Shown here piece by piece: positions 6,911 through 27,364 of a stretch of DNA of 64,000 nt. The DNA lies in the IMG/VR virus record IMGVR_UViG_3300009034_000021, positions 1 to 64,000 of that record, one strand, 5' to 3'. The notes under the pieces are model-generated. The model did no database searches and was not told the DNA's origin. It saw only the letters and a list, made by a program, of their open reading frames with translations. Both the position numbers and the translations under genes were made by a program. The stretch is from an uncultured virus (IMG/VR IMGVR_UViG_3300009034_000021). Lineage: Duplodnaviria > Heunggongvirae > Uroviricota > Caudoviricetes. Numbering within the stretch: the stretch's first letter is position 1; each line of letters begins with the position of its first letter.

Positions 6911-7086
6911 GCGAATTCTGTTGTCAATCTCAGCATTGCCATTCTATAGCCTCGGCTGGCTGGTAGGACAGGTTATCAAACTGTGTCATTGGATACGTGA
7001 TGCATTTCGGGCTGGGTATATAAAGACGAAAAGGACTGGGCACATGGCCAATTTTCAGGTGGACGATGGCCACGAACAGGTAAATT

Positions 7087-8667
7087 ATGATCGTTGACGA
7101 GATTAAGGCAATTCAGAAACGCGAGTCATCTCAGCTCTGGCATGGCTACCCGGCCAAGGCCGCCCCGTTCTCTTGGCCCACCTGGAGAGAGGGTCGCCCG
7201 CAATGGAAACTCATAGACTACCAGGCCTACGTTGAGGAAGGTTTCAACCTCAACAGCCTAGTCTATGAGAGTATCATGTACAAAGTGCGGGCACTGCAAC
7301 AGGTGCTACTGCGGGCCTACAAAGGAAGCATGGAGCATCCTGAGTTGCTGGATGTCGATCATCCATTGGCGAAACTCATAGCGCGGCCTAATCCACATCA
7401 AAGTTTCGTTGAATTCCAGGGCCAATCAATCGTCTACTTGAATCTATCAGGCAACAACTATCTTTTGATGGACAGGCCGAAAAGTGGCGGTTTGCCAGAG
7501 GCGATGTACAGTTTACGACCAGATAGGGTGTTTGTTGTACCTGGGAAGCAAAAACGCGGTCAGGCCGGACTCAGAGGCTATCTATACGTCCCAGAAGGGA
7601 AATCGGCGTGGTCGGGCTGGGATGCGCGTCGGCGGGTGGACGCGTTACGAGAAGGTGAGGCCGTACCGATTGCTCCACAAGACATAATGCATACCAAGTT
7701 GCCCAACCCCGGCGATCCGCTGGAAGGCCTGGGCGACGGTTTGCCACCTCTCTCGCCCAGCGCGCGTTCGGTAGACGTGGATAACAAAGTGACACATTTT
7801 CTCAAGTTGTTCTTCGATAAAGGCGTCATCGTACCTGGCCTGTTACAATTTGAATCACCCCTGACCGATCCTATCATGTCCAGGGTTCGCGAGCGCTGGA
7901 AGGAAATTTACGGTGGCTACGAAAGCTGGGCTGAGGAGATTGGTATACTTGACCAGGGCGGAAGTTACAAACGTATTGGGTTGACTTTCGAGGAGATGGG
8001 CTTTGGACAACTGGACGAACGCAACGAATCCCGTGTGTTGGGCCCGTTCGGTATACCGCCGATTTTGGTAGGGACTCGTATTGGCCTGGCTCATGCTACT
8101 TATTCCAATTATCAGATAGCTCGTCTGGCTTGCTGGGAAGACACCCTTGTGCCAGAAGTGATGTTGTTTGAGGTGGATTATCAATATTATCTCCAGGGCG
8201 ACGATGGAGAGTTCGTGGCCTATGACTACAGCAAAGTCCCAGCGTTCAGGGAAATCCGCAACGCGGCCTGGGAGCGGGCGAGCGGTGGCGTGAGTGGTGG
8301 ATGGGTGACGGTAAACGAAGGACGTGCAGAGGCAGGCTTGCCAGCAGTAGAAGGTGGCGATGTATTCTTGCGTGGTGTGACGGTGATACCTGAGCCGGCG
8401 GAAACGCAGGAATTTGCCGAACCAACGACGGAACGAACCGAAGAAGGCGCAGCGGAAGCCGAGGCCGATGAACGTAAAGCATGGCAACAGATAAAGGCTG
8501 GGGATAATGGGTCTGACAGCCAGACAAAAGCAACGATTCCTAACGGGCTTCGACCGCCGAGCGTTGGGCTGGGAGAAGGCGTTCGCCAGAGCAATGGAGA
8601 AGGCGATGTTGGCCAACAAGCGGGCGTTGCTGAAATTGTTGCGGGCGGCCAAGTCGTTCAAAGCTGA
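7087..8667 (+). CDS. Phage portal protein (HK97-like)
   Basis: Follows TerL. RPNP..S, YLNLSGNNY, LRPDRV, FGIPPILVG and TVNEGRAEAGLP motifs. Confidence 0.9.
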   Translation: MIVDEIKAIQKRESSQLWHGYPAKAAPFSWPTWREGRPQWKLIDYQAYVEEGFNLNSLVYESIMYKVRALQQVLLRAYKGSMEHPELLDVDHPLAKLIARPNPHQSFVEFQGQSIVYLNLSGNNYLLMDRPKSGGLPEAMYSLRPDRVFVVPGKQKRGQAGLRGYLYVPEGKSAWSGWDARRRVDALREGEAVPIAPQDIMHTKLPNPGDPLEGLGDGLPPLSPSARSVDVDNKVTHFLKLFFDKGVIVPGLLQFESPLTDPIMSRVRERWKEIYGGYESWAEEIGILDQGGSYKRIGLTFEEMGFGQLDERNESRVLGPFGIPPILVGTRIGLAHATYSNYQIARLACWEDTLVPEVMLFEVDYQYYLQGDDGEFVAYDYSKVPAFREIRNAAWERASGGVSGGWVTVNEGRAEAGLPAVEGGDVFLRGVTVIPEPAETQEFAEPTTERTEEGAAEAEADERKAWQQIKAGDNGSDSQTKATIPNGLRPPSVGLGEGVRQSNGEGDVGQQAGVAEIVAGGQVVQS

Positions 8668-10285
8668 AGTCAGTTGGTCAAAAGTCGAGCGTGATTGGGA
8701 TGAATACTGGACTCAATTCGCCGGCGAGGAATGGCGAAGGGCATTCATGCCAGTGCTACGAGGGATAATCACGGCACAGGATGAAAGCATCAACACTACG
8801 TTTGGGATAGAGTTTAACGTAAGGAACCTGTTCAGCGAGGCATACCTGCACGATACCGACTTTGGCTATTGGTTTGAGAATTACGTAGATACATTTTCTA
8901 AACCAGTACTAGAGACGACAAAGAAAGACCTGCGGGACTTGCTGTTGCAAGCACAACAGAACGGCTGGACGATTGAGCAGATGCGAGAACAACTTGACCT
9001 GAATTGGGACAAGTATCTCGATCCAAAATTCACGTTGGAAGGTCGTGGGTTGACCGAAGAAGAACGGGATTGGTTCGAGGAACGCAATCCACGTTACCGT
9101 AAAGACTTGATAGCGCGTGACCAAACGATGCGGGCCAGCAACACGGGTGGGTATTATCTCTATCGCGCCTGGGGCGCGCCGATGAAAGAATGGCTGGCGA
9201 CGGGAGACGCTCGCACGAGAGATACACATTTGGCAGCATGGCAGATGTACAGCGAGGGAGGCAATCCGGGACCGATCCCGATGGAGATACCGTTCAAGGT
9301 CGGCGGGTTCAGTTTGATGTACCCTGGCGATCCGTCTGGGCCGCCGCAGGAGTCAATCCAGTGCCGGTGTACGACGCTGCCATTCTATCCTGAGTTTGCG
9401 GGGACGGAAGAGGAGGTGGCACAGGCGCGGGCGGGGATGGAGGCGGAGATTGGGCGGCGGGAGGGGGAACAAAGGAGGCACAGGAGAGGAGAACCTTGGC
9501 GTGGAGTAGCAGGACAAATACCAGTAGGGGAAGATCATACTACTGAGTTCATGGAAAAGTGGTTTACGGAAGGATTAGAAATAACACAGAATTGGCGCGA
9601 TGCCCCAATTAGCGCCCAGGGACGTGCCAAAGATGAGTTAGTCAGGGCGATTTCCGAGCGAAGCGGCATACCATATGAGAGCGTGAACAAAATTATTAGA
9701 CAGTGGGCACAGACCTCCAATGACGATGACATGCGATCCTTGGCGATGCAAAAAGCAGCAGTGGAACACTTTGGAGTTCCACTATCTGATTTTTCAAAAG
9801 GCAAAATTGATCTCATTTTACAAAAGGTGAATGATTCGTTGGGATATGGTGTTACTTTTGAAGAATTATATGAATTGGGGATTGAGCAACAACGTATACG
9901 TCCTAGATACTCTCCTTTGATGGAAAATGAGCAATTAAAAACAGTTTTGGGAGCAATGTACGAGAATACCCAAGAACGATTAGCGGCAGCGGGATTTGGG
10001 CCAGGAACTACTATCAGAATGAGGCGGGGCGTATACTTGCCAACGGAGGTTACGAAGGATTGGGAAGTAGGAGATACTGTACCTATCGAGGGCAACGCGA
10101 TTGAAAGCTGGTCAATAGGCCCAGATATTTCGGCGCGTTTTGGTGGCACGATTTTTGAAATGGACGTGCCGGTGGAGATGATCGTCGGCTCGGCGCGCTC
10201 TGGCTATGGTTGCTTAACTGAGGGGGAATTTGTCATCCTGGGCAGCACGCCGAGTGAGGCAAAATTACTGAGAGTTGGAAAATGA
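8507..10285 (+). CDS. MuF/SPP1 gp7-like minor head protein with a C-terminal ADP-ribosyltransferase-like domain
   Basis: MuF motifs KEWLATGDARTRDTH and YPGDPSGPPQESIQCRC; C-terminal R-G / S-W-S / E-x-E triad. Confidence 0.85.
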   Translation: MGLTARQKQRFLTGFDRRALGWEKAFARAMEKAMLANKRALLKLLRAAKSFKAEVSWSKVERDWDEYWTQFAGEEWRRAFMPVLRGIITAQDESINTTFGIEFNVRNLFSEAYLHDTDFGYWFENYVDTFSKPVLETTKKDLRDLLLQAQQNGWTIEQMREQLDLNWDKYLDPKFTLEGRGLTEEERDWFEERNPRYRKDLIARDQTMRASNTGGYYLYRAWGAPMKEWLATGDARTRDTHLAAWQMYSEGGNPGPIPMEIPFKVGGFSLMYPGDPSGPPQESIQCRCTTLPFYPEFAGTEEEVAQARAGMEAEIGRREGEQRRHRRGEPWRGVAGQIPVGEDHTTEFMEKWFTEGLEITQNWRDAPISAQGRAKDELVRAISERSGIPYESVNKIIRQWAQTSNDDDMRSLAMQKAAVEHFGVPLSDFSKGKIDLILQKVNDSLGYGVTFEELYELGIEQQRIRPRYSPLMENEQLKTVLGAMYENTQERLAAAGFGPGTTIRMRRGVYLPTEVTKDWEVGDTVPIEGNAIESWSIGPDISARFGGTIFEMDVPVEMIVGSARSGYGCLTEGEFVILGSTPSEAKLLRVGK

Positions 10286-10431
10286 CAAAACACAAAAAAG
10301 TTGTCAACATCGGCGACACAGACAAAAATGCCGATTGGATCAAAACGCCAAAAAACCGTGAAAGCGAACGGCGAATACACGAAGAATTGGAGAAGCAATA
10401 TCGTGAGCGGAAGGATAAAAAAGGGTGCTAG
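10282..10431 (+). CDS. 49-aa charged ORF translationally coupled to MuF-ART (below ORF track cutoff)
   Basis: ATGA overlap with the MuF stop; MTKHKKVVNIGDTDKNADWIK... Confidence 0.5.
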   Translation: MTKHKKVVNIGDTDKNADWIKTPKNRESERRIHEELEKQYRERKDKKGC

Positions 10432-10568
10432 CCAATGCCCTACCCACAACTCTCTGTGGATGGGGCCAAATCCAGACTTGCGCGCAGCACAGGCGGCTAT
10501 TGGGACACTTGGTGGCGATCTGATCGAATTTGACGAAATAGAATACGTCGAGGGATGGATATATTAGA

Positions 10569-10697
10569 ATGGAAGAGATATTGAATGAGATCGAGGATTT
10601 GATACTTTCTGTCGATCCTTTGGATGTAATTATAGTACTGTTATTCATTACATTCGCCGTCGTTCTTTCAGTCGTTTTGTTGAATTTTCTACATTAA
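10569..10697 (+). CDS. 42-aa single-TM protein
   Basis: ATG 10569 to TAA 10697, with a hydrophobic C-terminal half. Confidence 0.35.
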   Translation: MEEILNEIEDLILSVDPLDVIIVLLFITFAVVLSVVLLNFLH

Positions 10698-10751
10698 GCA
10701 TAATTGCAAAGTAGCTATATTGTGGTAAAATTACGTTAGGAGACGAAAGAC

Positions 10752-11066
10752 ATGGCCGAGTATAAGGATTTTTTGATCATCCTGGGAATTGCAGCCAAGA
10801 CTCAATGGCCTGAAATAAAATGGGATTCATTGCGGATTGTTGAAACCCAGCGGAGAGATGTGGATTTGCCTGTGACAAAGATAACGCCAGCGATTGGGGA
10901 ATTAGTAGATTGGTTGCCTCAAGAGAAAGAAGAATGGCCTGAATTTGAACGTGAGCGAATACATTTGAAGAGACTCAATATAGGCAAATTTTCTTGTTAT
11001 GTTGGCTACGCAGAAAAAAATAATGTCCTGTTGATAAATGAATATTGGGCTTCTATGAGGAAATGA
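10752..11066 (+). CDS. Hypothetical protein
   Basis: SD AGGAG; candidate promoter TTGCAA-16-TAAAAT at 10704-10731. Confidence 0.6.
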   Translation: MAEYKDFLIILGIAAKTQWPEIKWDSLRIVETQRRDVDLPVTKITPAIGELVDWLPQEKEEWPEFERERIHLKRLNIGKFSCYVGYAEKNNVLLINEYWASMRK

Positions 11067-11067
11067 C

Positions 11068-11556
11068 ATGAAAAAGATTGAATATTTTTGCAATTGGTGC
11101 GGAGAACAGGTCGCAGAAGAAGAGTGTATAATCGCATCCATCACGTTTGGAAAAGCGAAGGACGCTCCCGCTTTGCGGCTATCCGAACAGAAACTTGCAT
11201 TGCATTTGCATAAAGAATGCGTGGATGAGTTCCTGCTTGCCATCCGTCGGCAGTTAGCAATATCCGTAACAGAAAAGATCACCAAACGTATAAAAGCCAT
11301 AAGCGAAGAGCATACTGTTTCTTCCCAGGTGAGGCAGCCATTGGACACGAAAGAAGTTTGGATTGTCGCTAATGGTGGTTATGACTATCTCAATCTGGAA
11401 CTTTTGCAGATATGTTCCGCCGAGGAAATAGCAAAGCAGTTCTTGACTGAATACAATGCAGCTCACCCCAAACCATTCCCCTGGAATCAGCGGGGTTATG
11501 TCAAAATAGAACTAGATAAGCCATTTAAATTCCCAGATGAGCCGGCTCAGGAGTAA
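11068..11556 (+). CDS. Hypothetical protein with CxxC/HxxC Zn-binding motifs
   Basis: YFCNWCG ... LHKEC. Confidence 0.55.
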   Translation: MKKIEYFCNWCGEQVAEEECIIASITFGKAKDAPALRLSEQKLALHLHKECVDEFLLAIRRQLAISVTEKITKRIKAISEEHTVSSQVRQPLDTKEVWIVANGGYDYLNLELLQICSAEEIAKQFLTEYNAAHPKPFPWNQRGYVKIELDKPFKFPDEPAQE

Positions 11557-11708
11557 TGTTGGAAGAGAAAATTGAACAGCCTACTCCACAAGTGAAACGA
11601 TTGTTGATAACCATTCGCCAGGCACTTATCATGGTGCTAGGTGCGATTGAGAATTTTCTGGGAATGGAGCGAAGCATCACGCCAAAACGAAAGCGAGACA
11701 AGCACTAA
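11556..11708 (+). CDS. 50-aa phage protein
   Basis: TAATG coupling; MLEEKIEQPTPQVKRLLITIRQALIMVLGAIENFLGMERSITPKRKR. Confidence 0.5.
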   Translation: MLEEKIEQPTPQVKRLLITIRQALIMVLGAIENFLGMERSITPKRKRDKH

Positions 11709-11741
11709 TCTAACAACCTTATAGCAGCCACCGGTTCAGCC

Positions 11742-11798
11742 AGCGGCATTTTTCTGGACAGCGTAACACCGTCCAAAAAAGTGCCGCTTTTTTATTTT
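11742..11798 (+). terminator. Intrinsic terminator-like hairpin
   Basis: AGCGGCATTTTTCTGGAC / GTCCAAAAAAGTGCCGCT stem followed by TTTTTATTTT. Confidence 0.65.
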
Positions 11799-14700
11799 AT
11801 GATGGAAATTGCCAAAATTACACCGGAATCTATACGAGAGGAGAGCAACGAGGCTCTATTGAACTTGCATCGTCATTTGCATGGTTTATGGTCTCAGCAC
11901 TTCGCTGATGGCGAGAGGACTACAAACGGTCTGACGAAAGAAGACTTAGTTAATGCCCATGTATTCGTGCGTGATGATATGGCACGACGGAAGATGCAAC
12001 ATGCAAGCGAACCACGAAATGGTTTGGATAAAGCGACACGTGAATTGAGCCGTAAGGGACTGGACGACGTGCTGAGCGAATCGGCAGAGGACACAATACT
12101 TGTCCCGGCCATCGTCACCATCACCGGTTCGGTGGGCGAGGGGCGCGAGAAGGCAGAAGACCTCGATGTACTGATACGGGCTGACCGGATCGAACAGGCA
12201 GGGAATCCCGGCTTTTTGATACGGGCAGAGGATATCGAGTTGCCAGTGCGAAAGCGATTTGATCCTGAGAAGACTGGGCTTGAAGTTCATTGGAATACAA
12301 ATCCGCAGGGTCCGCACGCGGATTATCTGCACATGGCCGATCTGGTATTACGGTGGCGGAGCCCGGTGGAACAAGTTTCGGTCAAGGCTGGCCGCCGTGT
12401 GCGTCAGGTGCGATTGGCACAGATACAAGGATTATTAACACGACTCAAGGATTTAGAACAAGAGATCGAAGGTTTTCTAGAGTGGGCCGAATATCGCGAT
12501 GTGCCGTTGATTACAGTCGTAGACGGACATTACATCCAACGTGAGGGAAAGCAGACACCGCTTGTACCGACAGAGTTCAAGCCAGCGATAGACGAGAAAT
12601 GTGTCTGTCCGGAATGTAAACACGAAAGTGGGCCGGCGGAAGGCAAAACTTGCATTGAGACGAAATGTCCAGAGTGTGGAGCATTGATGAAAGCCAAGGA
12701 GCCCACAGCGGTAGAGCCGGCGAAAGCAGCCGAGATAAAAGTCGTCGCTCCCGGCAAGCGATACTCAGTAATGAAGCCAAGCATGACAGGCGTGACGGAG
12801 TATTTTTCAACGGATGAACTGTGGGGCTGGACGCAAAAGAAATTGGAAGGCGATCATGCGCTATTGGGCAGTCCGAAGATAGACGGTTTTAGGGCAGTCA
12901 TCTCAAAGGATGGCGACACCTCAGTGTGGTTTGAAGATAGCAAAGAAACGAAGACGCCGCCAGGTATGCCTGAGTTGACGGGGCCGTCGTTCGTGATCGA
13001 GGGTGAATTCACGGCAAAACGCGGCGATAAATGGTTGGCCCGGACACAACTGGCCGGCGTCGTAGCAGGAAAGACGGAAGCGAGGCCACATTTTTGGCTA
13101 TACGACCTGCTTTATCACGATGGTGAGGACGTCAGCCAACGACCTTTCACCGAACGCCTGACTCTATTGAAAAAACTCAAATTGCCAGAACGCCACTTTA
13201 CGGTACTGGCTCAGCGTTCGGTACGCGGGCAACGAGACTTAGGGGCAGTGGGTAAATGGGCTGCTGGCCGGCCGCTATCAGAAGGACTGTTTCTGCGGGT
13301 TGCTGATGCAAAGTATGCATTTGGATCCAGTGACAGTTGCGCCAAACTCAAGACGGTGGCGGAACTAAAAGTCCAAGTCATTGATTCAGAGCGCAAGAAA
13401 AACGGAATCGTGTACCACGTTGGCCTTCGCGAGCCAGGCAAGTTCAGCAATGTGGCTGGAGAACTACTGGACTTGGGTAACACGTTCGTCGGCCCAGATC
13501 AGAGAGTAAAGGCCGGCGATACACTGAACGTTGTCTGTGAGGAATTAGTCATCGGCAGCAAGGACAGTAGACCAATTCTGCTCTGGGGCAAACCGACTGT
13601 GCAGGGCCCTGATAAATCACGACCGGCGTATACGACTGAACAGGCTATCAGCCTGGCACGGCGAAAGCACATCCTCAAAGAGGAGATAGCCACATCAGAA
13701 ACAAAAGCGGCAAAGTTGGAGGAGACACGAGGAGAACGGGCTGGGCGATCCTGGAAAGATAACTGGGCTAAATTAGTGATAAAGGGTGAAGGTAAATTCA
13801 TCCTGCACGGGCATTTTCCGGCCCTGACGGAAGAAGAATCAAAGTGGGACCTTCAAAAGTTGCTGGCGGCCAACAAGCAATATCATACTGATTTGAGGAA
13901 CGAGGCGCCGAGGCCGAATGGAGCATGGGGTTTCACGAACTATGAGGGGCGTGGCAGTAAGGTAGGGCCAAAGAGTACGCGGTTGTACAAAATGCCATCA
14001 AACAAACCGATGCGCGGTAGTTTTAAATTAGAACAGCCTCGCGCCTGGTTAACACATGCCAAGAACAAGCCAGAAGTGCACGAAGACGTCGGAGTCACAG
14101 GGAAGGACTGTGCAAAATTTTTTGCTTTGGACTGGGGACGTTACAAATTGACTTTCGCACGCGAGCATGCCTTCGAGATAATTTACGACGGCGCAAAAGG
14201 CGTGATGAACGGACGATATCAGATCAATTACGTCCCCGTAGGAGATGAGCGCGCATGGATGATATCACGGCCAGAAACGCAGGATGAGATTTACGCCGAC
14301 GAACACAAACTCGACACAGTACGCGATGACGTAAGGAGAAAAGGCCAGCAATGGTTGTTCTGGCGTGAGTCGTTGGGTGCTCCGCTACAGAAAATAAATG
14401 TGCGGAGTAGCAAGGAGAGCAAAATGCATGAAATGAATTTGAACGGTGAACTCACTGAGTTGGAGCTTCTGGATTTAGGCAGAACGGTGAAAGCCGCAGC
14501 CACACTCAGGTCTGCGCTGGAGGCGGCGTTAAAACGAATCGATAAAGAAGATGCCGAAGGCGCGATTGGACGGTTGCGGGCTGCGTTAGACAAAGTTAAT
14601 GATTACGGCTATGGCTATGGCTCACCGACCGGCGAGAAGGCAGTCAGTGCGAGTGCGATCAAAAAAGAGTTGAATCGTTGCATCGCTGGACTGGAGGATG

Positions 14701-15485
14701 ACGAACCTGACTATGGTAAAGCAAAAACCGTCCTTCAGAAATTGTTGGGTCGGCTGGGTTATGGCTCGTCTGATAAGGCGACTTCAGTAGATGCACTGAA
14801 GAAACAACTTATGCAGGTCATAGGTGAACTCAATCGTGACGAGCCGGATATGGAAAAAGTGGCCAGTGCTCTGCAAGGAGCCTTGGGCAAACTTGGCAAA
14901 AGTGAAGCGAAGGCAGCCGAATTAACAGCGGTAAAGATGCTGCGTGAGGAAAATGGCGGTGCGGTAGTCGGCGGGCACCTGTTGTTGTGGGGTAGCCCAG
15001 GGCAGAAGGACCTAGACGGCGACTACTTTACGCCGGAAACCAATCTGTGGCTTGATGAATACAAGTCAGTGCCGGCGATGTTTCATCACGGGCTTGATGC
15101 GAAAATCGGCCTGACGGCCATCGGCAGACGGCTTAAGGCAGCCAAAGATGACATTGGCGTATGGGTCGAAGATTGGTTGGATAAAAGCCACAAATACTGG
15201 GCTTTCGTCGAGAAGCTGTTAAAAGCCGGAGCATTGTATTATTCACCCGGATCGGCGCCACATTTGGTAGAACGGGAAACGGATGGGCGGCTAAAATCTT
15301 TCGCCGTGGTAGACGACACCCTGACACCCATCCCGTGCCAATATCGATTACGTCCCGTATCCGAAATCCAGGCGTCCTACAAGGCGGTTGGATTGGAGTT
15401 GCCAGATGTAGCGTTGGACAAAGGTGGACTGAAAGAAGAAATCGAAAAAACCGAGTCGGAACTGAAACGACTCATGGAGGTGTAA
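11799..15485 (+). CDS. Head polyprotein: nucleotidyltransferase-like + Zn ribbon + ATP-dependent ligase + LigD-like 3'-phosphoesterase + helical repeats + prohead protease
   Basis: ITGS..EDLDVL; CVCPEC..CPECG; ligase motifs PKIDGFR, IEGEF, LYDLL, EGLFLR, AKLK; FILHGH..HTDLRNE; C-terminal DLDGDYF..FHHG..YSPGS protease-like domain directly before the MCP. Confidence 0.8.
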   Translation: MMEIAKITPESIREESNEALLNLHRHLHGLWSQHFADGERTTNGLTKEDLVNAHVFVRDDMARRKMQHASEPRNGLDKATRELSRKGLDDVLSESAEDTILVPAIVTITGSVGEGREKAEDLDVLIRADRIEQAGNPGFLIRAEDIELPVRKRFDPEKTGLEVHWNTNPQGPHADYLHMADLVLRWRSPVEQVSVKAGRRVRQVRLAQIQGLLTRLKDLEQEIEGFLEWAEYRDVPLITVVDGHYIQREGKQTPLVPTEFKPAIDEKCVCPECKHESGPAEGKTCIETKCPECGALMKAKEPTAVEPAKAAEIKVVAPGKRYSVMKPSMTGVTEYFSTDELWGWTQKKLEGDHALLGSPKIDGFRAVISKDGDTSVWFEDSKETKTPPGMPELTGPSFVIEGEFTAKRGDKWLARTQLAGVVAGKTEARPHFWLYDLLYHDGEDVSQRPFTERLTLLKKLKLPERHFTVLAQRSVRGQRDLGAVGKWAAGRPLSEGLFLRVADAKYAFGSSDSCAKLKTVAELKVQVIDSERKKNGIVYHVGLREPGKFSNVAGELLDLGNTFVGPDQRVKAGDTLNVVCEELVIGSKDSRPILLWGKPTVQGPDKSRPAYTTEQAISLARRKHILKEEIATSETKAAKLEETRGERAGRSWKDNWAKLVIKGEGKFILHGHFPALTEEESKWDLQKLLAANKQYHTDLRNEAPRPNGAWGFTNYEGRGSKVGPKSTRLYKMPSNKPMRGSFKLEQPRAWLTHAKNKPEVHEDVGVTGKDCAKFFALDWGRYKLTFAREHAFEIIYDGAKGVMNGRYQINYVPVGDERAWMISRPETQDEIYADEHKLDTVRDDVRRKGQQWLFWRESLGAPLQKINVRSSKESKMHEMNLNGELTELELLDLGRTVKAAATLRSALEAALKRIDKEDAEGAIGRLRAALDKVNDYGYGYGSPTGEKAVSASAIKKELNRCIAGLEDDEPDYGKAKTVLQKLLGRLGYGSSDKATSVDALKKQLMQVIGELNRDEPDMEKVASALQGALGKLGKSEAKAAELTAVKMLREENGGAVVGGHLLLWGSPGQKDLDGDYFTPETNLWLDEYKSVPAMFHHGLDAKIGLTAIGRRLKAAKDDIGVWVEDWLDKSHKYWAFVEKLLKAGALYYSPGSAPHLVERETDGRLKSFAVVDDTLTPIPCQYRLRPVSEIQASYKAVGLELPDVALDKGGLKEEIEKTESELKRLMEV

Positions 15486-15486
15486 T

Positions 15487-16770
15487 ATGAACTGGAAAGA
15501 AATGTTGGCACAAGCCAACAAACTGATGGAGGAGGTCAAGGCAGTTGATGTGGCCGAGGCGTCCGCCGAAGAGCTAGAGCAAATCGGGGAGAAACATGCC
15601 GAGGCAAAGGCTTTGATGGCGAAAGCCGGACAGCTTAAGGAAATTGAACAGACTGCGCTTGAACTCCAGCAAACAGTAGAGGCAGAACAGCAAGGTGATT
15701 CACCGGTTGAGGGCAGCGAGTTCAAAACCTGGGGCGATTTCCTGTTTGCTACGTGGCTTTGGACGGCGCATCAGAAACGTGATCCACGTCTCAAAGTTTT
15801 CAAGGACGATGCACCGTCGAGTAAACCAGAAGTCAAAGACATGGTAGAGAGCACCGGCGCGGCGGGTGGATTCCTCGTGCCTGTGGAGTTCCTGGCCGAG
15901 CTTCAGGCGGCTATGGCTGAAAACGCTATCGTCAGACCACGAGCGACCATCCTGCCGATGCGACGCAGGCAACTTGATGTGCCGGTGCTTGACCAGACCG
16001 GGACCACGGCTGGCATACCTCATTGGTTCGGCGGAATGCAGTTTTACTGGGCTGAGGAAGCGCACGAAAAGACATTGAGCGATCCGACGTTCCGCAAAAT
16101 CTCGCTGGTGGCACACAAGATGATCGGCTACACGCGAGCCAGTGATGAATTGCTGGATGATTCGGCCATCAGCCTGGAGGCGTTTCTGAGTGGACCGCTT
16201 GGTTTTGCTGGCGGTGCGACGTGGATGGAAGACTACGCTTTCTTGCAAGGCACCGGTGCCGGGCAGCCGCTCGGCGTCATTCCCGCTACGGCCACGATCA
16301 ATGTCGCCCGTGCGACGGCGGGCACGATCACTTACGCAGACATTTGCAACATGTTAATGAATTTCCTGCCGACCGGTAAAGGTGTGTGGGTCATCAGCCA
16401 AAGTGCGCTGAGTACTGTGGTGCAAATCTCTGGCCCAGCGGGAAATCCTAGTTACGTCTGGCAGCCAAACGCACGGGAAAAGACTCCCGCTTATCTATTT
16501 GGCTATCCTGTCATCTGGTCGGAAAAGTCACCGGCTATGGGTACCGCTGGCGACATCCTGCTAGCCGACTTTCAGTATTATCTTATCGGGGATCGCCAGG
16601 CGACGACAGTAGAATCGACCAAATTCGACCGCTGGCGATATGACGAGACTAGCTGGCGCATGGTGCACCGCGTGGATGGCCAACCGTGGTTAAGCCAACC
16701 CCTAACCTATCAGGACGGCGCGACGCAAGTGAGTCCATTCGTCATTCTGGCCGGTGCCGGGGCGAGCTAA
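15487..16770 (+). CDS. Major capsid protein (HK97 fold, with N-terminal delta domain)
   Basis: Coiled-coil N-terminus; GGFLVP, WAEEA, SDELLDDS, FLQGTGAGQPLG, LFGYPV, LADFQYY, RVDGQP. Confidence 0.95.
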   Translation: MNWKEMLAQANKLMEEVKAVDVAEASAEELEQIGEKHAEAKALMAKAGQLKEIEQTALELQQTVEAEQQGDSPVEGSEFKTWGDFLFATWLWTAHQKRDPRLKVFKDDAPSSKPEVKDMVESTGAAGGFLVPVEFLAELQAAMAENAIVRPRATILPMRRRQLDVPVLDQTGTTAGIPHWFGGMQFYWAEEAHEKTLSDPTFRKISLVAHKMIGYTRASDELLDDSAISLEAFLSGPLGFAGGATWMEDYAFLQGTGAGQPLGVIPATATINVARATAGTITYADICNMLMNFLPTGKGVWVISQSALSTVVQISGPAGNPSYVWQPNAREKTPAYLFGYPVIWSEKSPAMGTAGDILLADFQYYLIGDRQATTVESTKFDRWRYDETSWRMVHRVDGQPWLSQPLTYQDGATQVSPFVILAGAGAS

Positions 16771-16782
16771 GGAGGATAAACC

Positions 16783-17214
16783 ATGAGTAGCTTTACACAG
16801 GCGTTTTATGAAGTTGAGTGGATTGGCATCGTCATCAACTTCGCCGCTCAAGGCAGCCAGAATAGCAACTGGTACGATATGGAAGAATTTCATCGTGCTA
16901 CCGCTATTCTGATGACCGGAGCAGTTGGTGCCGGTGAGGATGTGCGTATAGCCATCTACACTGCGACCGATGGCGCGGGCACGAGCCGGACGCTGGTCAA
17001 GCAGATGACAGCCGCCCAGGCGGTGAACGGCAATGACGATCTGGCGATTGTCGAGCTGCGGACTGAAGAAATGGCAGGCGCGCTGGTCAATGCTAAATTC
17101 ATACGGATCGAGGCAACTGCGACGCTGACGCCAGAGTATGGCGTGCTGTTACTGCGGCGCGTGCCGAGATTCCCACCGGTTGACGTAACGCATATCGACC
17201 GACTGATTGCGTGA
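16783..17214 (+). CDS. Putative capsid decoration/structural protein
   Basis: Directly after the MCP, SD AGGAGG, beta-rich. Confidence 0.6.
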   Translation: MSSFTQAFYEVEWIGIVINFAAQGSQNSNWYDMEEFHRATAILMTGAVGAGEDVRIAIYTATDGAGTSRTLVKQMTAAQAVNGNDDLAIVELRTEEMAGALVNAKFIRIEATATLTPEYGVLLLRRVPRFPPVDVTHIDRLIA

Positions 17215-17264
17215 TAGACATGGAGGGACTTGGATAACTCTATCCAAGTCCCTCCGACCACCTA

Positions 17265-18074
17265 ATGAGTCGCTGGATACGTCTCAAGTCAATGCAATTC
17301 ATACGCCGGAAACGATACCAGGCCGGCGAGTGGATTTGCGTTGGCAATCAATTAGCTGAAAAGTTGATCAGTCAGGGAGAGGCTGATAGTGGGCCGACGA
17401 TGACGGCGGAAATCGCTGACGATGCTGGAGTCGTGTACGTGGTGTATGGAGATAGAGCAGTTAAAGAGGCCAGAGACTCAGTAAAATCGATAAAAGGATT
17501 GCATCCCAGTTTGCCTGTCGTCATCGTATCAGACGATGATCCAGGCATCAAAGAGACGCAATTTGTCTATCACGAGGACACCGATCCCGGAGCGCGGGCG
17601 GCGAAACTGGCGACATACGAACTTTCACCGTTTGAACGAACACTGTACCTCGACGCTGACACGGTGGCGATATCATCTCTGGCCGGTGGATTTAACCTGC
17701 TGCAAAACTTTGACGTGGCCTTGGCAATCGATCTCACGACAGCGGCGCAGGGTGTGTTGGCTGGAATGCTCACGTACACAGAAGAGGAAAGGTCGGCAAC
17801 GAGAGAGGTGTTGCCAACACCACATCTGACACAATATGCCTGCGGTGCGATTTTCTTTCGTAAAAGTGACGAAACGGCAAAGTTATTTCAGGCCTGGCGT
17901 GCTGAATGGTTGCGCTTTCGGTGGCGCGATCAGGGTGCCTTTCTGCGGGCACTTTATCGGACACCGATACGGCATGTAGCGTTGCCAATCGAATGGAATG
18001 TCTCAGGACGACGGCGCAAGGCGATGGTGATACATCACCGTTGGGGTACGGCACGGAGGCCGGGGCAAGGATGA
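17265..18074 (+). CDS. GT-A glycosyltransferase (GT8-like) with a small N-terminal phage domain
   Basis: TLYLDADT DxD motif, DQGAF, LPIEWN. Confidence 0.8.
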   Translation: MSRWIRLKSMQFIRRKRYQAGEWICVGNQLAEKLISQGEADSGPTMTAEIADDAGVVYVVYGDRAVKEARDSVKSIKGLHPSLPVVIVSDDDPGIKETQFVYHEDTDPGARAAKLATYELSPFERTLYLDADTVAISSLAGGFNLLQNFDVALAIDLTTAAQGVLAGMLTYTEEERSATREVLPTPHLTQYACGAIFFRKSDETAKLFQAWRAEWLRFRWRDQGAFLRALYRTPIRHVALPIEWNVSGRRRKAMVIHHRWGTARRPGQG

Positions 18075-18718
18075 CACGAGGTGTGGTGTACGTTGCCTAT
18101 GGCGAAAATGCGAAACGAGAGGCTAAAATATCAGCGCAATCTCTCAAGGGGCAATGTGATCTGCCGGTATTCGTAGTAGATGAAACGGTATTGCCGGGTG
18201 AATTTTTCGGCGTACCGGCCGAGGGGCATCGCGCCGGCAAGAGAGTATTCTTGCCTGGCCTGGTCAAGCCAAAGTTATGGGAACTAACACCTTTTGAACA
18301 TACGCTATATCTCGACGCCGATACACGAGTCATGGCAGACCCATCGCCGTTGTTCAAATTACTAGAAGCGGGCTGGGATATGGGACTGGCACCTGGTCAG
18401 GCAGCCAGATTCGTGAGAGAGACGAATTTTGGCCCAAGAGAACGTGGGATCACTGTTTCAGAACTCGGCACAGGACTTTTGCACTATTATAATTCTGGAG
18501 TCATCCTATGGACCAAAAACGACAAAATGAGGGCCTTCTTTGATAGATGGGGCGGGGAGTGGCAACGGTTCCGCAATTGGGACGAACAGATGGCCTTGAT
18601 GCGAGCGTTATGGAAAACCAGTGTTAAGTTCGTCACATTGGCACAATGCTGGAACCAACGAGGAGAACAGGACGGAGCATTGATATATCACCCAACAGGA
18701 AGCCACCGAACGTGGTAG
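18071..18718 (+). CDS. GT-A glycosyltransferase (GT8-like), paralog of the upstream gene
   Basis: GVVYVAYG, TLYLDADT, YNSGV, DEQMAL; ATGA coupling at 18071. Confidence 0.8.
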   Translation: MTRGVVYVAYGENAKREAKISAQSLKGQCDLPVFVVDETVLPGEFFGVPAEGHRAGKRVFLPGLVKPKLWELTPFEHTLYLDADTRVMADPSPLFKLLEAGWDMGLAPGQAARFVRETNFGPRERGITVSELGTGLLHYYNSGVILWTKNDKMRAFFDRWGGEWQRFRNWDEQMALMRALWKTSVKFVTLAQCWNQRGEQDGALIYHPTGSHRTW

Positions 18719-18760
18719 AATATTGTCTCATTGTAATGCTCCAGCAACTATATCAACGTC

Positions 18761-19402
18761 ATGCTTGGAGAGATAATGGACAACGATACACCTCAGTTAT
18801 ACGATGAAGGCGAAGAGCAATGGAAGACCAAGTTGCACCTCGGCTGCGGCAATATCTATTTGATAGGCTACGAGAATATCGACGTAGTCGGTGTTCTGGC
18901 CGATGAGCGTCCTGATTTAGTAGAGGCGAACAGGACGAATATCAAGAGTTATTACGGGCGGCGGACGGCATACACCGATATTCACCATATTGTGCCAAGG
19001 GCAGGTTATGTCGTAGACCGGCGAATGTGCATGACAAATCTTGGGAATGAGATTGGTTCAGTCAACAAAATTGTGTGTATTCAGGCATTAGAACATCTAC
19101 AACCTAATGATGGTGTAAGAGCGCTGACGCATTGGCATGATCTACTCAAACAGGATGGAATATTGATGATATCTGTCCCTGACACGTCTGAGACCGTGGA
19201 AATGTTGCTCGACGAATGCACTAGGGATTTCGCTATCCAACACCTGGCTGGGACACGAACGGATCAACATAGTTATCACCGTAATCATTTTACACGGCTA
19301 TGTTTGTCCGCTCTTTTAACGTTGCATGGTTATGGAGAAATTGAATTCTTGTCAAACTTTCATCGTTATCCAGCCATTGTGGTAAGGGCGAAAAGATTAT
19401 AG
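18761..19402 (+). CDS. Class I SAM-dependent methyltransferase
   Basis: KLHLGCG, ALEHL, LKQDGILMISVPD. Confidence 0.8.
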   Translation: MLGEIMDNDTPQLYDEGEEQWKTKLHLGCGNIYLIGYENIDVVGVLADERPDLVEANRTNIKSYYGRRTAYTDIHHIVPRAGYVVDRRMCMTNLGNEIGSVNKIVCIQALEHLQPNDGVRALTHWHDLLKQDGILMISVPDTSETVEMLLDECTRDFAIQHLAGTRTDQHSYHRNHFTRLCLSALLTLHGYGEIEFLSNFHRYPAIVVRAKRL

Positions 19403-19439
19403 TAGACAAGACTATTTTTGAAAGGAGTGATAAGATACA

Positions 19440-21110
19440 TTGTCCAAAATAGCCGGTTTTACGCTGACTAAGACACCTCACCAACCCCAAGCTCCACTGT
19501 GGTTGATCAAATATCCTCATGTGACGACTAAACATCTCAATTGTAACGAATGGTCATTATTTTTATGGGGTTGCGGAGACTTGACACAATTTATTTCCGA
19601 TAACACGATCATCGTCGGCTACTCAGATATTGATATGGCGACGTTGGATGTGTACCCGTTGCAAAATCGAGGATTGATCATCAGGCTAGACGAACATGCT
19701 ACAATCACGAACGATGCATTGGGAATGATGCAGGTATTCTACGGTAGCAAGGACGGTGTGCCGTGGATTTCCACGTGCGAGGAATCGGTTATTCGGGGAT
19801 TGGGCAGAGTAACATTGGGGCCAGGGCGACTGGCCGGATATCTAATGTTACAAAGCACCTCCGCTTCGTTGACACTATGGAGTGAAATCGATAAACTTTA
19901 TGCTAACTCTTTACTGAGTATTTCGCCTGATGGCAATTTCCGGCAAAGTTTTCAGGAACCACTGAATTTCACGCCGATGAAAAAGGATTACGTCACGCAA
20001 ATGGCGAGCGTGTTGCGCGAGACAGTGCATCACTACACTGATCCGCTGGACGATGTGATCCTGATGTTGTCTCATGGCCATGATTCTCGACTCATTCTGT
20101 GCAACATGCTGAGGCCAGAACGGGTGCATGCTAGAACTTTCCCCTTGTCGCATCCGGCAGGACGAGCCCACGACGTCGTCATCGCGAAAGAATCGGCGCG
20201 ACTGGCTGGAGTGACGGATCACAAGGTTATTGATCTAGGACAGAACCAACTGCGTGATTGTACACGGCCAGCGACGGAATTTTATGGTACACCGTTGGGC
20301 GCGGTGCAGATTTACCTCTACGACGTATGCGAACGAGTAGGGCGCGAAAACCCATCGTGGCCTATCATAACGGGATTGAACGGTGACGAACACGCAGGTA
20401 TCGCGTTGTTTCGTTCTCGTAACAAATTACGCCAGGAAAGTGATCCGGCCGATCGGTTCGTATCCGGCTGCTATTCTTGGGTCAAATCGTGGCTACCAAG
20501 AGACCTGGATGCCGGCCTGACGTTTGACTGGCGCGGCGCATTGAAACCGATACGCGAAATCTGGACGCATATTTGGCAAAATACTGAGGGTGATGATCTA
20601 ACGAGGCACGCACATCTGATTCATACCCGCAATAGAGGCAATCAGTATATAACCTACGCCTGGCAGGGATGTGACTTGTATGGTGGGCTTGTGGGCCCCA
20701 TCTATAACGACCGACATTATGTTGAATTCATGCTGTCCTTGCCACACGAGGTATTGAACGAGGGCACGTTCGATTTTGAGGTTCCGATGGCCGGCACGAT
20801 ACGTGAGGTACGGACGGGGCAGGTTGAACTCTTTCAACGATATTTCCCAGAACATTATCCTTATGCCGGACTACCACTCGACGCCTTCGATTGGGCGAAC
20901 CGGCTTGATCCGGACGCATTAGCGAAAGCAAAGGGAGCCGCATTGTGGCCGTTGGTTCCTAATGGATCAAAACCAAGTCATGGGTTTTTTAATGCAGCGA
21001 AGTTCAAGGAACTCTATCGCAAGGCGGTAAATGGTGACATGCGGAGTTATTATCTGCTTAACTCAGTGCAACCGTTGGCATGGGCGATTGAAAAGGGATA
21101 TGTCCAGTGA
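19440..21110 (+). CDS. Asparagine synthetase-like amidotransferase
   Basis: NDALG..VFY, LSHGHDSR (PP-loop-like), ITGLNGDE. Confidence 0.7.
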   Translation: MSKIAGFTLTKTPHQPQAPLWLIKYPHVTTKHLNCNEWSLFLWGCGDLTQFISDNTIIVGYSDIDMATLDVYPLQNRGLIIRLDEHATITNDALGMMQVFYGSKDGVPWISTCEESVIRGLGRVTLGPGRLAGYLMLQSTSASLTLWSEIDKLYANSLLSISPDGNFRQSFQEPLNFTPMKKDYVTQMASVLRETVHHYTDPLDDVILMLSHGHDSRLILCNMLRPERVHARTFPLSHPAGRAHDVVIAKESARLAGVTDHKVIDLGQNQLRDCTRPATEFYGTPLGAVQIYLYDVCERVGRENPSWPIITGLNGDEHAGIALFRSRNKLRQESDPADRFVSGCYSWVKSWLPRDLDAGLTFDWRGALKPIREIWTHIWQNTEGDDLTRHAHLIHTRNRGNQYITYAWQGCDLYGGLVGPIYNDRHYVEFMLSLPHEVLNEGTFDFEVPMAGTIREVRTGQVELFQRYFPEHYPYAGLPLDAFDWANRLDPDALAKAKGAALWPLVPNGSKPSHGFFNAAKFKELYRKAVNGDMRSYYLLNSVQPLAWAIEKGYVQ

Positions 21111-27232: not shown

Positions 27233-27364
27233 ATTGCGACTGATTTAGAGAGGGAATCAGATTTTTGATCTTCAGGGATACGGCCCGTATTGAGTCGTGT
27301 CCCTTCAAATTCATGACATCAGATGAGGCAAAGTTATGTCATCAATTACTGAGTAAGGAAAATA

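Follow-up and report, generated by a model that had tools for sequence, protein, structure and literature searches.

Does an uncultured phage load DNA end-repair enzymes into its head by joining them to its prohead protease? The question is raised by a gene in the head module of a 71,298-bp phage genome, of which a stretch of 64,000 nucleotides (the window) was analysed. Since the protease is the tail end of a protein with predicted ligase, 3'-phosphoesterase (PE) and nucleotidyltransferase (NTase) domains, the phage probably does load such a kit into the head via the fusion. All head-module features described below are on the + strand.

An intact gene between the portal and capsid genes

The head-module polyprotein is encoded by one intact ORF, from ATG 11802 to the stop codon ending at 15485 (11802..15485, 1227 aa). 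According to the ORF list and to relatives, it comprises in this order an NTase-like module, a Zn ribbon, a ligase, a PE, a linker and a protease. Upstream of the gene are the portal/MuF genes, and downstream is the major capsid gene. The portal gene (7087..8667; PF04860, E 1.3e-43) is the upstream marker of the head module. The major capsid gene (15487..16770; PF05065, E 2.4e-46; phrog_10) begins 2 nt past the polyprotein stop, with its ribosome-binding site (RBS) located within the 3' end of the polyprotein gene; its product belongs to the HK97 fold family and has a 126-residue N-terminal extension before the Pfam domain. An earlier note on this DNA had described a single ORF in the head-protease position, which the intact frame and the portal-to-capsid slot bear out. 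Nevertheless, the start proposed there, 11799, is one codon early, as the relatives P0002, P0005 and P0006 begin at the residue matching ATG 11802, and as a related contig from run X1 differs at positions 11800-11801 such that ATG 11799 is lost and ATG 11802 is intact. The longest form of the ORF begins at GTG 11781, the first possible start (11781..15485, 1234 aa); in our residue numbering, M8 corresponds to ATG 11802.

The reading frame is intact in independent contigs from three runs and two studies. The X1 contig, of 39,023 nt, bridges positions 11703-15600 with 321 substitutions relative to the window, and its only gaps, at 11723 and 11788, are both upstream of the ORF; the indels of contigs X2 and X3 preserve the frame. 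P0002 and P0003, which are 95% and 88% identical to the polyprotein, are likewise encoded by one ORF each, on contigs other than that of the window. Although relatives have two genes at the junction, an assembly or sequencing artefact merging two genes is hardly conceivable given these data, and this explanation is refuted as far as the contigs show: no stop or frameshift, which the earlier note had named as a reason to reject the fusion, separates the ligase from the protease in them. Identities per domain range between 0.90 and 0.98 with P0002 and between 0.82 and 0.93 with P0003, the cargo domains being conserved like the protease. The nucleotide changes relative to X1 are mostly silent (P0002 likewise comes from a contig of 39,023 nt), and on sequence comparison the gene is under purifying selection.

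Ligase and phosphoesterase domains

The ATP-dependent ligase (12756..13700, residues 326-640) is composed of an adenylation domain and an OB-like C-terminal part. Its PF01068 match covers residues 365-524 and exceeds the cut-off (38.3 bits versus 26.2, E 1.4e-9), and 7/7 relatives match as well. Motif I reads K366IDGFR, with K366 at nt 12876. K366, D368, G369, R371, E407, E409, D442, E501, G502, K522 and K524 are invariant in the seven relatives, and we take these conserved residues to represent also motifs III, IIIa, IV and V, in agreement with the ligase described in the earlier note. The region matches phrog_114, and with the family profile E values as low as 6e-21 were obtained for PDB DNA ligases. 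Matches to the NCBIfam ligase models are all far under their cut-offs, one alignment reaching residue 571. In the C-terminal part, PF04679 gave no match at E up to 1; visual inspection alone pointed to an OB fold and to motif VI, including a WGKPT..DKS segment.

The following domain (13701..14405, residues 641-875) is, according to its predicted fold and to hhalign, a LigD-type 3'-phosphoesterase beta-barrel that carries a helical insert of ~20 aa and extra N- and C-terminal elements. With the predicted model (pLDDT 92.5), LigD PE entries take all of the top seven Foldseek places (E 2.5e-5 to 4e-3). VIA gave Z values of 12.5, 12.2, 10.9, 10.9, 9.9 and 8.8 for six PE entries and 3.4 for the next one, the best match having an rmsd of 2.4 over 121 residues. 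The hhalign comparison with eight genuine LigD_N sequences reached 95.1% (E 3.1e-8). The residues of the H676xH678 (nt 13806) and H702xD704xR706 (nt 13884-13898) motifs are invariant in 7/7 aligned relatives, and hhalign aligns H678, H702, D704 and R706 with the H..HxDxR of genuine PE domains. Pfam PF13298 (LigD_N) gave no match with the polyprotein itself at E up to 1, and weak matches in 7/32 relatives (best E 0.0011). The EDHPxxY segment of LigD, whose His and Tyr we take to be at the phosphate, is set by hhalign against a low-confidence stretch without matching residues. Domain parsing by predicted structure, as advised in the earlier note, confirmed the PE barrel fold; the LigD-like segment proposed there is borne out, with only LigD PE structures matching and the catalytic residues in place.

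N-terminal module and Zn ribbon

The N-terminal module (11802..12395, residues 8-205) consists of a helical hairpin and a Pol-beta-like minimal NTase-like domain identified by its motif. The active-site motif of the Pol-beta superfamily NTases (PF01909), hG[GS]x9-13Dh[DE]h, is present in the polyprotein, with G116-S117 at nt 12126 and D127-x-D129 at nt 12159-12167. The columns of G116, S117, D127 and D129 are invariant in 32/32 aligned relatives, and in the predicted model these residues lie on a strand, GS-helix, DxD-strand unit. ESM Atlas look-alikes of the domain carry PF01909. A search of the polyprotein itself with Pfam NTP_transf_2 gave no match, and six of the 32 relatives have weak ones (best E 0.012). 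The hhalign match reached 77.7% (E 1.9e-5), but across 26 columns only. Foldseek returned no match at E <=0.001, with MntA, HEPN-MNT and HI0073 at E 0.46-0.86, and the VIA lists for the domain were filled by the N-terminal helical hairpin. Thus, the invariant GS..DxD motif on which the earlier proposal of a Pol-beta-like enzyme was based is there, but no clear whole-domain profile or fold match accompanies it. That the module is an NTase is plausible.

A long helix and a four-Cys Zn ribbon, delineated by eye and in the predicted model, follow (12396..12755). The four Cys residues (C276PEC279 ... C296PEC299, nt 12606-12677) were confirmed by eye where the earlier note had reported a Zn ribbon. 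This element, with a pLDDT of 66-82 in the model, was spotted by eye only in P0001-P0003 (3/7 aligned); its site holds a metallo-beta-lactamase-fold insert or nothing in relatives (Lactamase_B_2 in 3/7).

Protease, linker and internal start

The only prohead protease recognised in the phage is formed by the last ~190 residues. Profiles delimit an HK97 gp4-like (S78-type) serine protease domain and a C-terminal tail (14901..15485). H1103, S1155 and H1161 are invariant in 34/34 relatives. The score of the polyprotein with Pfam S78 (PF04586) is 16.7 bits versus a cut-off of 21; 4/34 relatives match, and the protease homologue of locus L003 passes the cut-off with 21.8 bits. The hhalign comparison with HK97 gp4 and three others reached 83.1% (E 8.9e-6) over 97 columns, which span the His segment and end just before the Ser. 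The identity of the C-terminal domain as an HK97 gp4-like protease, as anticipated in the earlier note, is thus supported at the profile level.

The protease is preceded by a 165-aa helical linker (14406..14900, residues 876-1040) with three GYG/LGK-ended repeats. Stand-alone protease proteins have this linker at their N terminus, and it may be scaffold-like. The sequence there contains an internal RBS, AAGGAG, followed by a 6-nt spacer and an in-frame ATG coding for M882 (14412..14426). Among 217 internal in-frame ATGs, counted over the 22 genome ORFs of at least 300 aa, M882 is the only one with AAGGAG 5-9 nt upstream. The stand-alone homologue P0024 begins at the residue equivalent to M882, and L003 and L004 show a stop codon, an RBS and an ATG at the position of this junction. 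The RBS and M882 are the retained start of a formerly separate protease gene.

No Shine-Dalgarno sequence was found at the full-length start. Just before it, a hairpin (11742-11788) and a U-run that abuts the start codon (11742..11798 in all) were identified from folding energy (-25.9 kcal/mol, z -3.59; 0/200 shuffles fold as well). As predicted, this element is terminator-like or an attenuator; it is absent from a separate hairpin scan because its loop exceeds 8 nt. Since the protease RBS and M882 are retained, two products are probably made from the gene, a short protease and a rarer cargo-protease.

Distribution and origin of the fusion

The PE domain was found in 113 of the 155 proteins examined. 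Seventy of the 113 have a C-terminal XkdF-type protease, three a polyprotein-type protease and 40 neither, some of the latter being fragments. The architecture that the earlier note had suggested searching for elsewhere is therefore not a one-off, as 73/113 PE-bearing relatives have a head protease, of one of two families, at the C terminus. The XkdF Pfam PF14550 was confirmed in 14/32 relatives. The predicted NTase-ligase-PE core is widespread, and 17/113 PE-bearing proteins have the NTase and PE without the ligase. Using residues 1-1049 as a tblastn query against 50,697 deposited phage records, we obtained no match at E 1e-5, and hence no cultured carrier was found.

In 7/7 loci with readable flanks (L003, L004, L005/L013, L006, L007 and L008), the portal gene lies upstream of the gene, and the protease/capsid gene lies downstream of it or is fused to it. 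The nearest relatives that are not identical (L003/L004, probably P0020/P0024) encode the cargo separately, in an adjacent gene and another frame. In L005/L013, it is the capsid protein to which the protease is joined, and the cargo stands apart. Thus, the cargo need not be fused covalently. P0008 likewise joins a protease to a capsid protein. On this comparison, two neighbouring genes, which relatives still have as separate ones, were recently fused in frame to give the polyprotein gene.

Protease-clade relatives carry 2H/LigT phosphoesterase domains instead (PF13563 in 4/34, PF02834 in 3/34) and match PHROG 'RNA ligase' families. We also detected RNA_ligase PF09414 in 2/32 relatives, and weak DNA-glycosylase-type matches (Pyr_excise in 5/32, UDG in 1/32).

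Comparison with known systems

The polyprotein shares with the bacterial/archaeal LigD/NHEJ PEs (PDB 3P43, 3P4H, 3N9B, 3N9D, 5DMP, 2LJ6) the PE barrel and the His..HxDxR residues, and with LigD the presence of a ligase, a PE and a nucleotide-adding module in one protein. Unlike LigD, it has no AEP primase-polymerase domain, the Pol-beta-like minimal NTase motif being in its place, and its domain order is NT-LIG-PE. Its PE has the ~20-aa insert, the EDHPxxY segment is unmatched, and the Pfam LigD_N cut-off is not reached. In addition, it has a protease fused to it, and its gene is part of a phage head module. Ku (PF02735) was not found in the 71,298-bp genome. Of the 'complete' LigD-like kit announced in the earlier note, the ligase and PE are confirmed, but with neither an AEP domain nor Ku the set is not a complete LigD.

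HK97 gp4 (PF04586, S78) resembles the C-terminal part in being encoded directly upstream of the capsid gene, in the profile match and conserved His/Ser/His residues, and in being directly preceded by a hairpin, which is annotated for HK97 too. Unlike gp4, the polyprotein is under the Pfam cut-off and has, ahead of its protease, the 165-aa linker of repeats and an N-terminal extension of 870 aa with the enzymes. Duda et al. reportedly found in 2013 that the C-terminal part of gp4 can carry foreign proteins into capsids. The C and Nu3 genes of lambda are nested head genes: initiation at an internal codon in the same frame gives a shorter protein with the same C terminus. In comparison, the internal start of the polyprotein is deduced from sequence only, and it is the long form that carries enzymes.

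Polyvalent phage proteins, in which an assemblin-like peptidase is always C-terminal, were described in 2017 by Iyer, Burroughs, Anand, de Souza and Aravind (PMC5512222), whose main text predicts their packaging in the virion and delivery with the DNA. Like them, the polyprotein combines many enzyme domains in one polypeptide with a virion-gene context and a C-terminal head-processing peptidase; the features that define the group (at least two enzyme domains, a C-terminal peptidase and a virion-gene context) are all present. In contrast, its cargo is an end-healing/sealing set, where that main text describes methylase, ART, peptidase and RNase sets. In the main text, 'DNA ligase' and 'LigD' occur 0 times each, and 'ligase' three times, for RNA ligases or in references. 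We found no ligase/PE/NTase cargo on a head protease in print; the supplement of PMC5512222 could list such architectures. The general polyvalent idea is already published, and what is new is the two-gene fusion origin and the retained internal protease start in this phage. P1 Dar and the T4 internal proteins with a capsid-targeting sequence, which travel in the head, enter along with the DNA and guard it against host nucleases, are precedents for large anti-restriction proteins delivered by the capsid (PMC9024508). In the passages of that paper that concern them, their targeting signals are short and N-terminal, and they act by blocking or modifying; unlike the polyprotein, none described there is a ligase/phosphoesterase or protease-fused.

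Possible functions of the polyprotein

Our preferred reading, whose chances we regard as evenly balanced, is that of a capsid-targeted cargo polyprotein whose first ~870 residues would be a co-injected end-healing/sealing set. The linker-protease made from M882 would be plentiful, and the full-length form, made from the SD-less start just behind the hairpin, scarce. The protease part would enter the procapsid like other prohead proteases, pulling the enzymes inside, and cleavage within linkers would release them. They would then remain in the head and exit with the DNA. On entry, the PE would first strip 3'-phosphate or ribonucleotide blocks, the NTase would add a nucleotide, and the ligase, possibly pre-adenylated, would then seal phage ends or nicks, or reseal nuclease cuts. 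The earlier note had likewise proposed co-injection to seal or circularise the genome, or to repair restriction or CRISPR cuts. Apart from the polyprotein, the phage genome showed no DNA ligase, and neither a DNA polymerase nor Ku was seen in it. Against the cargo model count the 26-column NTase match, the unmatched EDHPxxY segment, the 40/113 PE-bearing proteins without a protease, the cargo encoded apart from the protease in L003/L004 and L005/L013, the lack of a tblastn match among the deposited phage records, and the fact that no cleavage sites were identified. A more elaborate version, which we put forward tentatively, is that of a Ku-independent LigD-like end-joining kit in the head, with its dose set by a Gag-Pol-like two-start gene and with a pre-adenylated ligase that would seal the ends of the incoming genome, or nuclease cuts in it, within seconds of entry, prior to the expression of any phage gene. 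In such a scheme, the strong internal start would yield the protease, and the weak upstream start behind the hairpin the cargo-protease. If true, the factors for counter-defence and genome establishment that virions deliver would gain a new class, one common in uncultured sediment phages.

Alternatively, though this is rather improbable, the protein might be a late cytoplasmic DNA-maturation enzyme that is co-expressed with the head genes and cleans or seals nicks, gaps and ends of replicated DNA before or during packaging. The separate cargo and protease of L003/L004 and the cargo located apart from the protease-capsid fusion of L005/L013 are in keeping with such a role, as are the 40/113 PE-bearing proteins without a protease domain, the internal start, which would yield protease without cargo, and the lack of another DNA ligase in the phage. 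Nevertheless, a C-terminal head protease in 73/113 proteins, from two families, is hard to explain by co-expression alone, and the protease is always C-terminal, as in the virion-associated polyvalent proteins of the PMC5512222 main text. For a late enzyme, the fusion would be a recent accident, tolerated or undone by cleavage, and nothing would be delivered to the next host.

Unlikely, in our view, is a kit for repairing RNA (tRNA) ends, whether packaged or not, directed at cuts by host anticodon or acceptor-stem nucleases, which would heal 2',3'-cyclic or 3'-phosphate ends and re-extend or reseal the RNAs. The phage has a T4 Rnl1-like RNA ligase (47671-48708), no polynucleotide kinase-phosphatase being seen in it, and the 2H/LigT domains and PHROG 'RNA ligase' families of the protease-clade relatives, the 17/113 NTase-PE proteins without a ligase and PF09414 in 2/32 relatives all point towards RNA. 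However, the sole structural relatives of the PE are NHEJ phosphoesterases, the ligase profile matches DNA ligases, the weak glycosylase-type matches of relatives are of a DNA type, and a 5'-kinase is absent. Very improbable is that decayed enzymes have been retained as a bulk internal-head or scaffold protein devoid of catalysis: the unmatched EDHPxxY segment of the PE would fit, but all catalytic residues tested are invariant, the ligase is above its Pfam cut-off, and the changes relative to X1 are mostly silent.

Reading frame and neighbouring genes

The 71,298-bp IMG/VR record that opens with the 64-kb window was rated complete by CheckV. On the + strand of the window, the genes are ordered terminase large subunit (with a LAGLIDADG insert), portal, MuF, a long ORF and major capsid, the last starting 2 nt beyond the stop of the long ORF. 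The longest reading of this ORF begins at GTG 11781, from which residues are numbered here, and codes for 1234 aa. An earlier note placed the start at 11799. We abandoned this start, since the residue encoded by ATG 11802 is the first one in relatives and, in a related contig, altered bases 11800-11801 destroy ATG 11799 and keep ATG 11802. The gene was thus taken to be 11802-15485 (+), coding for a polyprotein of 1227 aa. No second protease candidate was found among the Pfam and PHROG matches between the portal and capsid genes.

To look for a stop or a frameshift between ligase and protease, we compared 11700-15600 with Logan contigs from sediment metagenomes (three runs, two studies). A 39,023-nt contig covers this stretch entirely, with 321 substitutions and with gaps at 11723 and 11788 only, both upstream of the polyprotein gene. 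In the two remaining runs, the indels are a one-codon deletion near 12725-12729 and a +1/-1 pair at 13556/13559 whose members compensate each other. Furthermore, the architecture of the window polyprotein recurs end to end on other contigs, in P0002 (95% identical, 1227 aa) and P0003 (88% identical, 1232 aa). Thus, the single ORF described in the earlier note is intact as far as contigs can show, with no break separating ligase and protease.

The cargo, i.e. the NTase-like (NT), ligase and phosphoesterase (PE) domains, is as conserved as the protease. Identities of NT, ligase, PE and protease are 0.93, 0.93, 0.97 and 0.96 to P0002, and 0.85, 0.92, 0.92 and 0.93 to P0003, respectively. Given 321 nucleotide differences (11703-15600) for an amino acid difference of ~5%, most changes are silent, and the polyprotein enzymes are under constraint.

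Two genes upstream have features of their own. The terminase large subunit (4295-6910, +) has terminase PHROG matches on both sides of a LAGLIDADG/homing-endonuclease segment (residues 297-378), an interruption that looks intein-like. The ORF of the MuF head protein (PF04233; 8507-10285, +), as called, overlaps the end of the portal gene. The C-terminal stretch of this protein has a weak likeness to DRAT ADP-ribosyltransferase (E 0.0019, under cut-off), and the protein is a candidate for a second effector delivered from the head.

Predicted domains of the polyprotein

The ATP-dependent ligase, with its active Lys encoded at nt 12876, was readily recovered. PF01068 matches residues 365-524 with 38.3 bits (cut-off 26.2), phrog_114 also matches the domain, and the family profile matches PDB DNA ligases with E values down to 6e-21. 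K366 and the other ligase residues tested are invariant in 7/7 relatives. No profile confirms the candidate OB part of the ligase.

The proposed LigD-like phosphoesterase segment is borne out by structural comparisons. The AlphaFold2 model of residues 641-875 has a pLDDT of 92.5, and LigD 3'-phosphoesterase entries take the top seven places among its Foldseek matches in the PDB (E 2.5e-5 to 4e-3). VIA placed six PE entries at Z 12.5, 12.2, 10.9, 10.9, 9.9 and 8.8, the next chain being at 3.4. With hhalign, 112 family segments were matched to eight genuine LigD_N sequences, from genomes of the same phylum as the metagenome-assembled genome (MAG) that carries one of the related loci, at 95.1% and E 3.1e-8. 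LigD_N is present in 23/61 genomes tallied, including G039, which is flagged as unpublished and from which no sequence was used. The alignment pairs H678 and H702-x-D704-x-R706 with the H..HxDxR residues of LigD, and it shows no counterpart in the PE family of the EDHPxxY segment of LigD. The Pfam LigD_N profile has no match in the window protein and weak matches, which do not reach the cut-off, in 7/32 relatives. A single-sequence search of the PDB with the whole protein or the PE segment gave nothing relevant, and the only BFVD match of the PE model at E <=0.001 is an unnamed 827-aa protein. Based on model and alignments, we assign the domain to the PE fold as a divergent representative that has retained its metal site.

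For residues ~95-205, the assignment as a Pol-beta-like NTase is plausible but not proven. The GS..DxD motif (G116-S117 and D127-x-D129) is invariant in 32/32 proteins, and in the model (pLDDT 74) these residues sit on a strand, helix, strand unit. Pfam gave weak matches in 6/32 relatives, PF01909 clusters are found among the ESM Atlas neighbours, and hhalign matched nine genuine PF01909 sequences at 77.7% and E 1.9e-5, across just 26 columns. Foldseek returned no match at E <=0.001. In two VIA searches, matches to the helical hairpin at the N terminus took up the lists (Z <=7.4), and we draw no statement on the NT fold from these searches. The Zn ribbon (CPEC..CPEC) is found in the window protein, P0002 and P0003 only; other relatives have a metallo-beta-lactamase-fold insert or nothing at its position.

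The C-terminal domain (residues 1041-1234) is probably an HK97-type protease as the note had it, although its Pfam S78 score of 16.7 bits lies under the cut-off of 21. S78 matches 4/34 relatives, and the homologue at locus L003 reaches 21.8 bits. In hhalign, the family matches HK97 gp4 and three genomic S78 proteins at 83.1% and E 8.9e-6 over 97 columns, and H1103, S1155 and H1161 are invariant in 34/34. This clade of 34 proteins (alignment A2, with P0124, P0126 and P0155 among others) includes members with a 2H/LigT-type phosphoesterase N-terminal to the protease (PF13563 in 4/34, PF02834 in 3/34); nucleic-acid or nucleotide enzymes of at least two kinds thus occur in the clade. In P0008, the protease is fused to a capsid protein. 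A combined alignment of PE, linker and protease (A4) was dropped because its PE rows were misaligned.

Distribution and genetic environment of the relatives

A HMMER search of 1.84 billion cluster representatives collected 3254 proteins at E <=0.001, 221 of them at E <=1e-30. Domains were mapped in 155 proteins, namely the query, seven from the first relative search and the rest from the best 150 of the HMMER matches. Of these 155 proteins, 113 have a PE domain. As the note had asked, the architecture was sought in other phages, and a head protease does close many of these proteins: 70 of the 113 PE-bearing proteins end in an XkdF-type protease (PF14550, confirmed by Pfam in 14/32 scanned) and three in the protease type of the window, while the 40 with neither include some contig-end fragments. 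NT and PE occur without a ligase in 17/113.

The scan of genome contigs gave one locus, in a Chloroflexota MAG, and that of viral contigs gave ten. Wherever flanks are readable, the cargo gene follows a portal or portal-MuF gene and precedes, or is fused to, a protease or capsid gene. The order is portal, cargo, protease and capsid in L003 and L004, the nearest non-identical loci; terminase, portal, cargo and a protease-capsid fusion in L005 and L013; and portal followed by cargo fused to XkdF in L006, L007 and L008. In L003, a nucleoside 2-deoxyribosyltransferase-like gene (7074-7520; PF15891, E 3.9e-15) lies between the portal and cargo genes.

Among 50,697 deposited phage records, tblastn with the whole protein matched residues 1050-1208 only, in 183 records that are all Salinibacter ruber phages; none matched the NT-ligase-PE core. 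Megablast of 7000-20000 against the deposited phage collection gave no match. In cultured phages of S. ruber M8, the protease clade follows a 650-aa extension and closes an 846-aa protein encoded just upstream of the capsid gene (L001:4321-6861, Salinibacter phage 15_1). Neither Pfam nor PHROG matches this protein. A TnpB/Cas12f-like ORF (PF07282; L001:1517-3169) is found near that gene.

Probable fusion origin and internal start

In L003 and L004, the cargo gene codes for 881 aa, ending ...GGAGGGATAA, and a protease gene of 367 aa starts 2 nt past it in another frame. At the matching point of the window (14412-14426), AAGGAG is followed after 6 nt by an ATG (M882), in frame and with no intervening stop. 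P0024, a stand-alone homologue (60% identical), has its first residue exactly at the M882 position, and the cargo fragment P0020 ends just ahead of it. From these junctions, we infer that the polyprotein gene is a recent in-frame fusion.

The former start signal has been kept. The 22 ORFs of >=300 aa in the genome contain 217 internal in-frame ATGs, and M882 alone among these has AAGGAG 5-9 nt upstream, a motif that also precedes the best-equipped genes of the phage. The full-length start has no SD and lies 10 nt downstream of a hairpin (-25.9 kcal/mol, z -3.59) with a U-run. The gene probably yields two products, with the linker-protease being plentiful and the cargo-protease scarcer. The region upstream (11557-11798, +) contains, after a 162-aa ORF, an ORF of ~50 codons with its own AGGAG, then the hairpin and U-run. 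In HK97, too, a terminator is annotated between the portal gene and the protease gene.

Possible roles of the cargo

Like LigD, the window polyprotein joins a ligase, a 3'-phosphoesterase and a module that would add nucleotides. Unlike LigD, it has no AEP polymerase, and the genome has no Ku. The LigD-like end-repair kit of the earlier note holds for ligase and PE, with a plausible NTase. Neither a second DNA ligase nor a DNA polymerase was found in the 71,298-bp genome, and no polynucleotide kinase-phosphatase was recognised in it.

The architecture and its conservation, the synteny, the recurring protease fusion, the fusion origin and the internal RBS are best read as those of a head-delivered cargo. 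The cargo would be encapsidated through its protease part, proteolysis would free the enzymes from the polyprotein, and these would be ejected from the head and then act on DNA ends. Inspection of the linkers and of the N-terminal part of the capsid protein for cleavage sites gave no defensible shared motif. The unfused relatives keep alive another reading, in which the protein is a late cytoplasmic enzyme rather than packaged cargo. A role on RNA or small nucleotides is also possible, in line with the 2H-phosphoesterase fusions in the protease clade and the NT-PE forms devoid of ligase. A separate T4 Rnl1-like RNA ligase (47671-48708, -; phrog_562 E 3.7e-70; PF09511) is a weak argument for RNA being sealed by another enzyme than the polyprotein.

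A large RRXRR+HNH endonuclease is encoded just upstream of the terminase region (1450-2760, +). HNH proteins beside the terminase accompany cohesive-end packaging in HK97-like phages. If the same link applies here, such packaging would fit a need for end sealing.

The polyprotein fits the class of polyvalent head proteins defined in 2017. For such proteins with a terminal assemblin-like peptidase, packaging into the virion and delivery along with the DNA were already predicted in general terms (PMC5512222), and P1 Dar and the T4 internal proteins are precedents of head-delivered protective proteins (PMC9024508). The passages of PMC5512222 and PMC7824862 do not describe a ligase-PE cargo. In the literature open to search (subscription journals and supplements lying outside it), we found no paper in which a ligase or LigD-type PE is joined to a head protease or carried inside virions. 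New from the window's copy are its origin by fusion and its internal start. To our knowledge, known virion-delivered proteins block, modify or transcribe. If the ligase-phosphoesterase set is delivered, phages can supply the infected cell with DNA end repair of their own, which bears on how, in slow-growing hosts, phage genomes become circular and withstand cutting by restriction or CRISPR systems. With 221 representatives at E <=1e-30, this is a large family, yet its core matches none of the 50,697 records, so that an entire class of such cargo has escaped study. Pairs with and without the fusion, together with the internal start, offer a concrete handle on cargo loading and dosing, and the protease tail could act as a natural tag to load enzymes into HK97-type capsids.

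CRISPR spacers and other genome features

Contigs of 85-88 nt with a repeat-spacer-repeat structure were found in X1, one of the sediment runs. Their spacers match 12375-12408 and 13131-13162, in the polyprotein gene, and 15559-15591, in the capsid gene. Some organism in that sample has thus taken up spacers that target this phage or one closely related to it. The repeat, of 27-28 nt, is presumably type I-E-like. Arrays within three mismatches of it are present in 15/401 genomes, all from the phylum of the MAG (Chloroflexota), with no exact match; as only this phylum was searched, we name no host.

Between the head and tail genes, a cluster of ~10 kb (18761-29145, +) codes for three family-2 glycosyltransferases, FkbM-type and other SAM methyltransferases, a sulfotransferase-like protein, an asparagine-synthase-like protein and an NAD-dependent sugar epimerase/dehydratase. 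Its predicted content is that of an unusual glycan or modification cluster within the structural module. Lastly, the gene at 55424-56791 (-) codes for a ParB-like N-terminal domain fused to an N6/N4 DNA methyltransferase.
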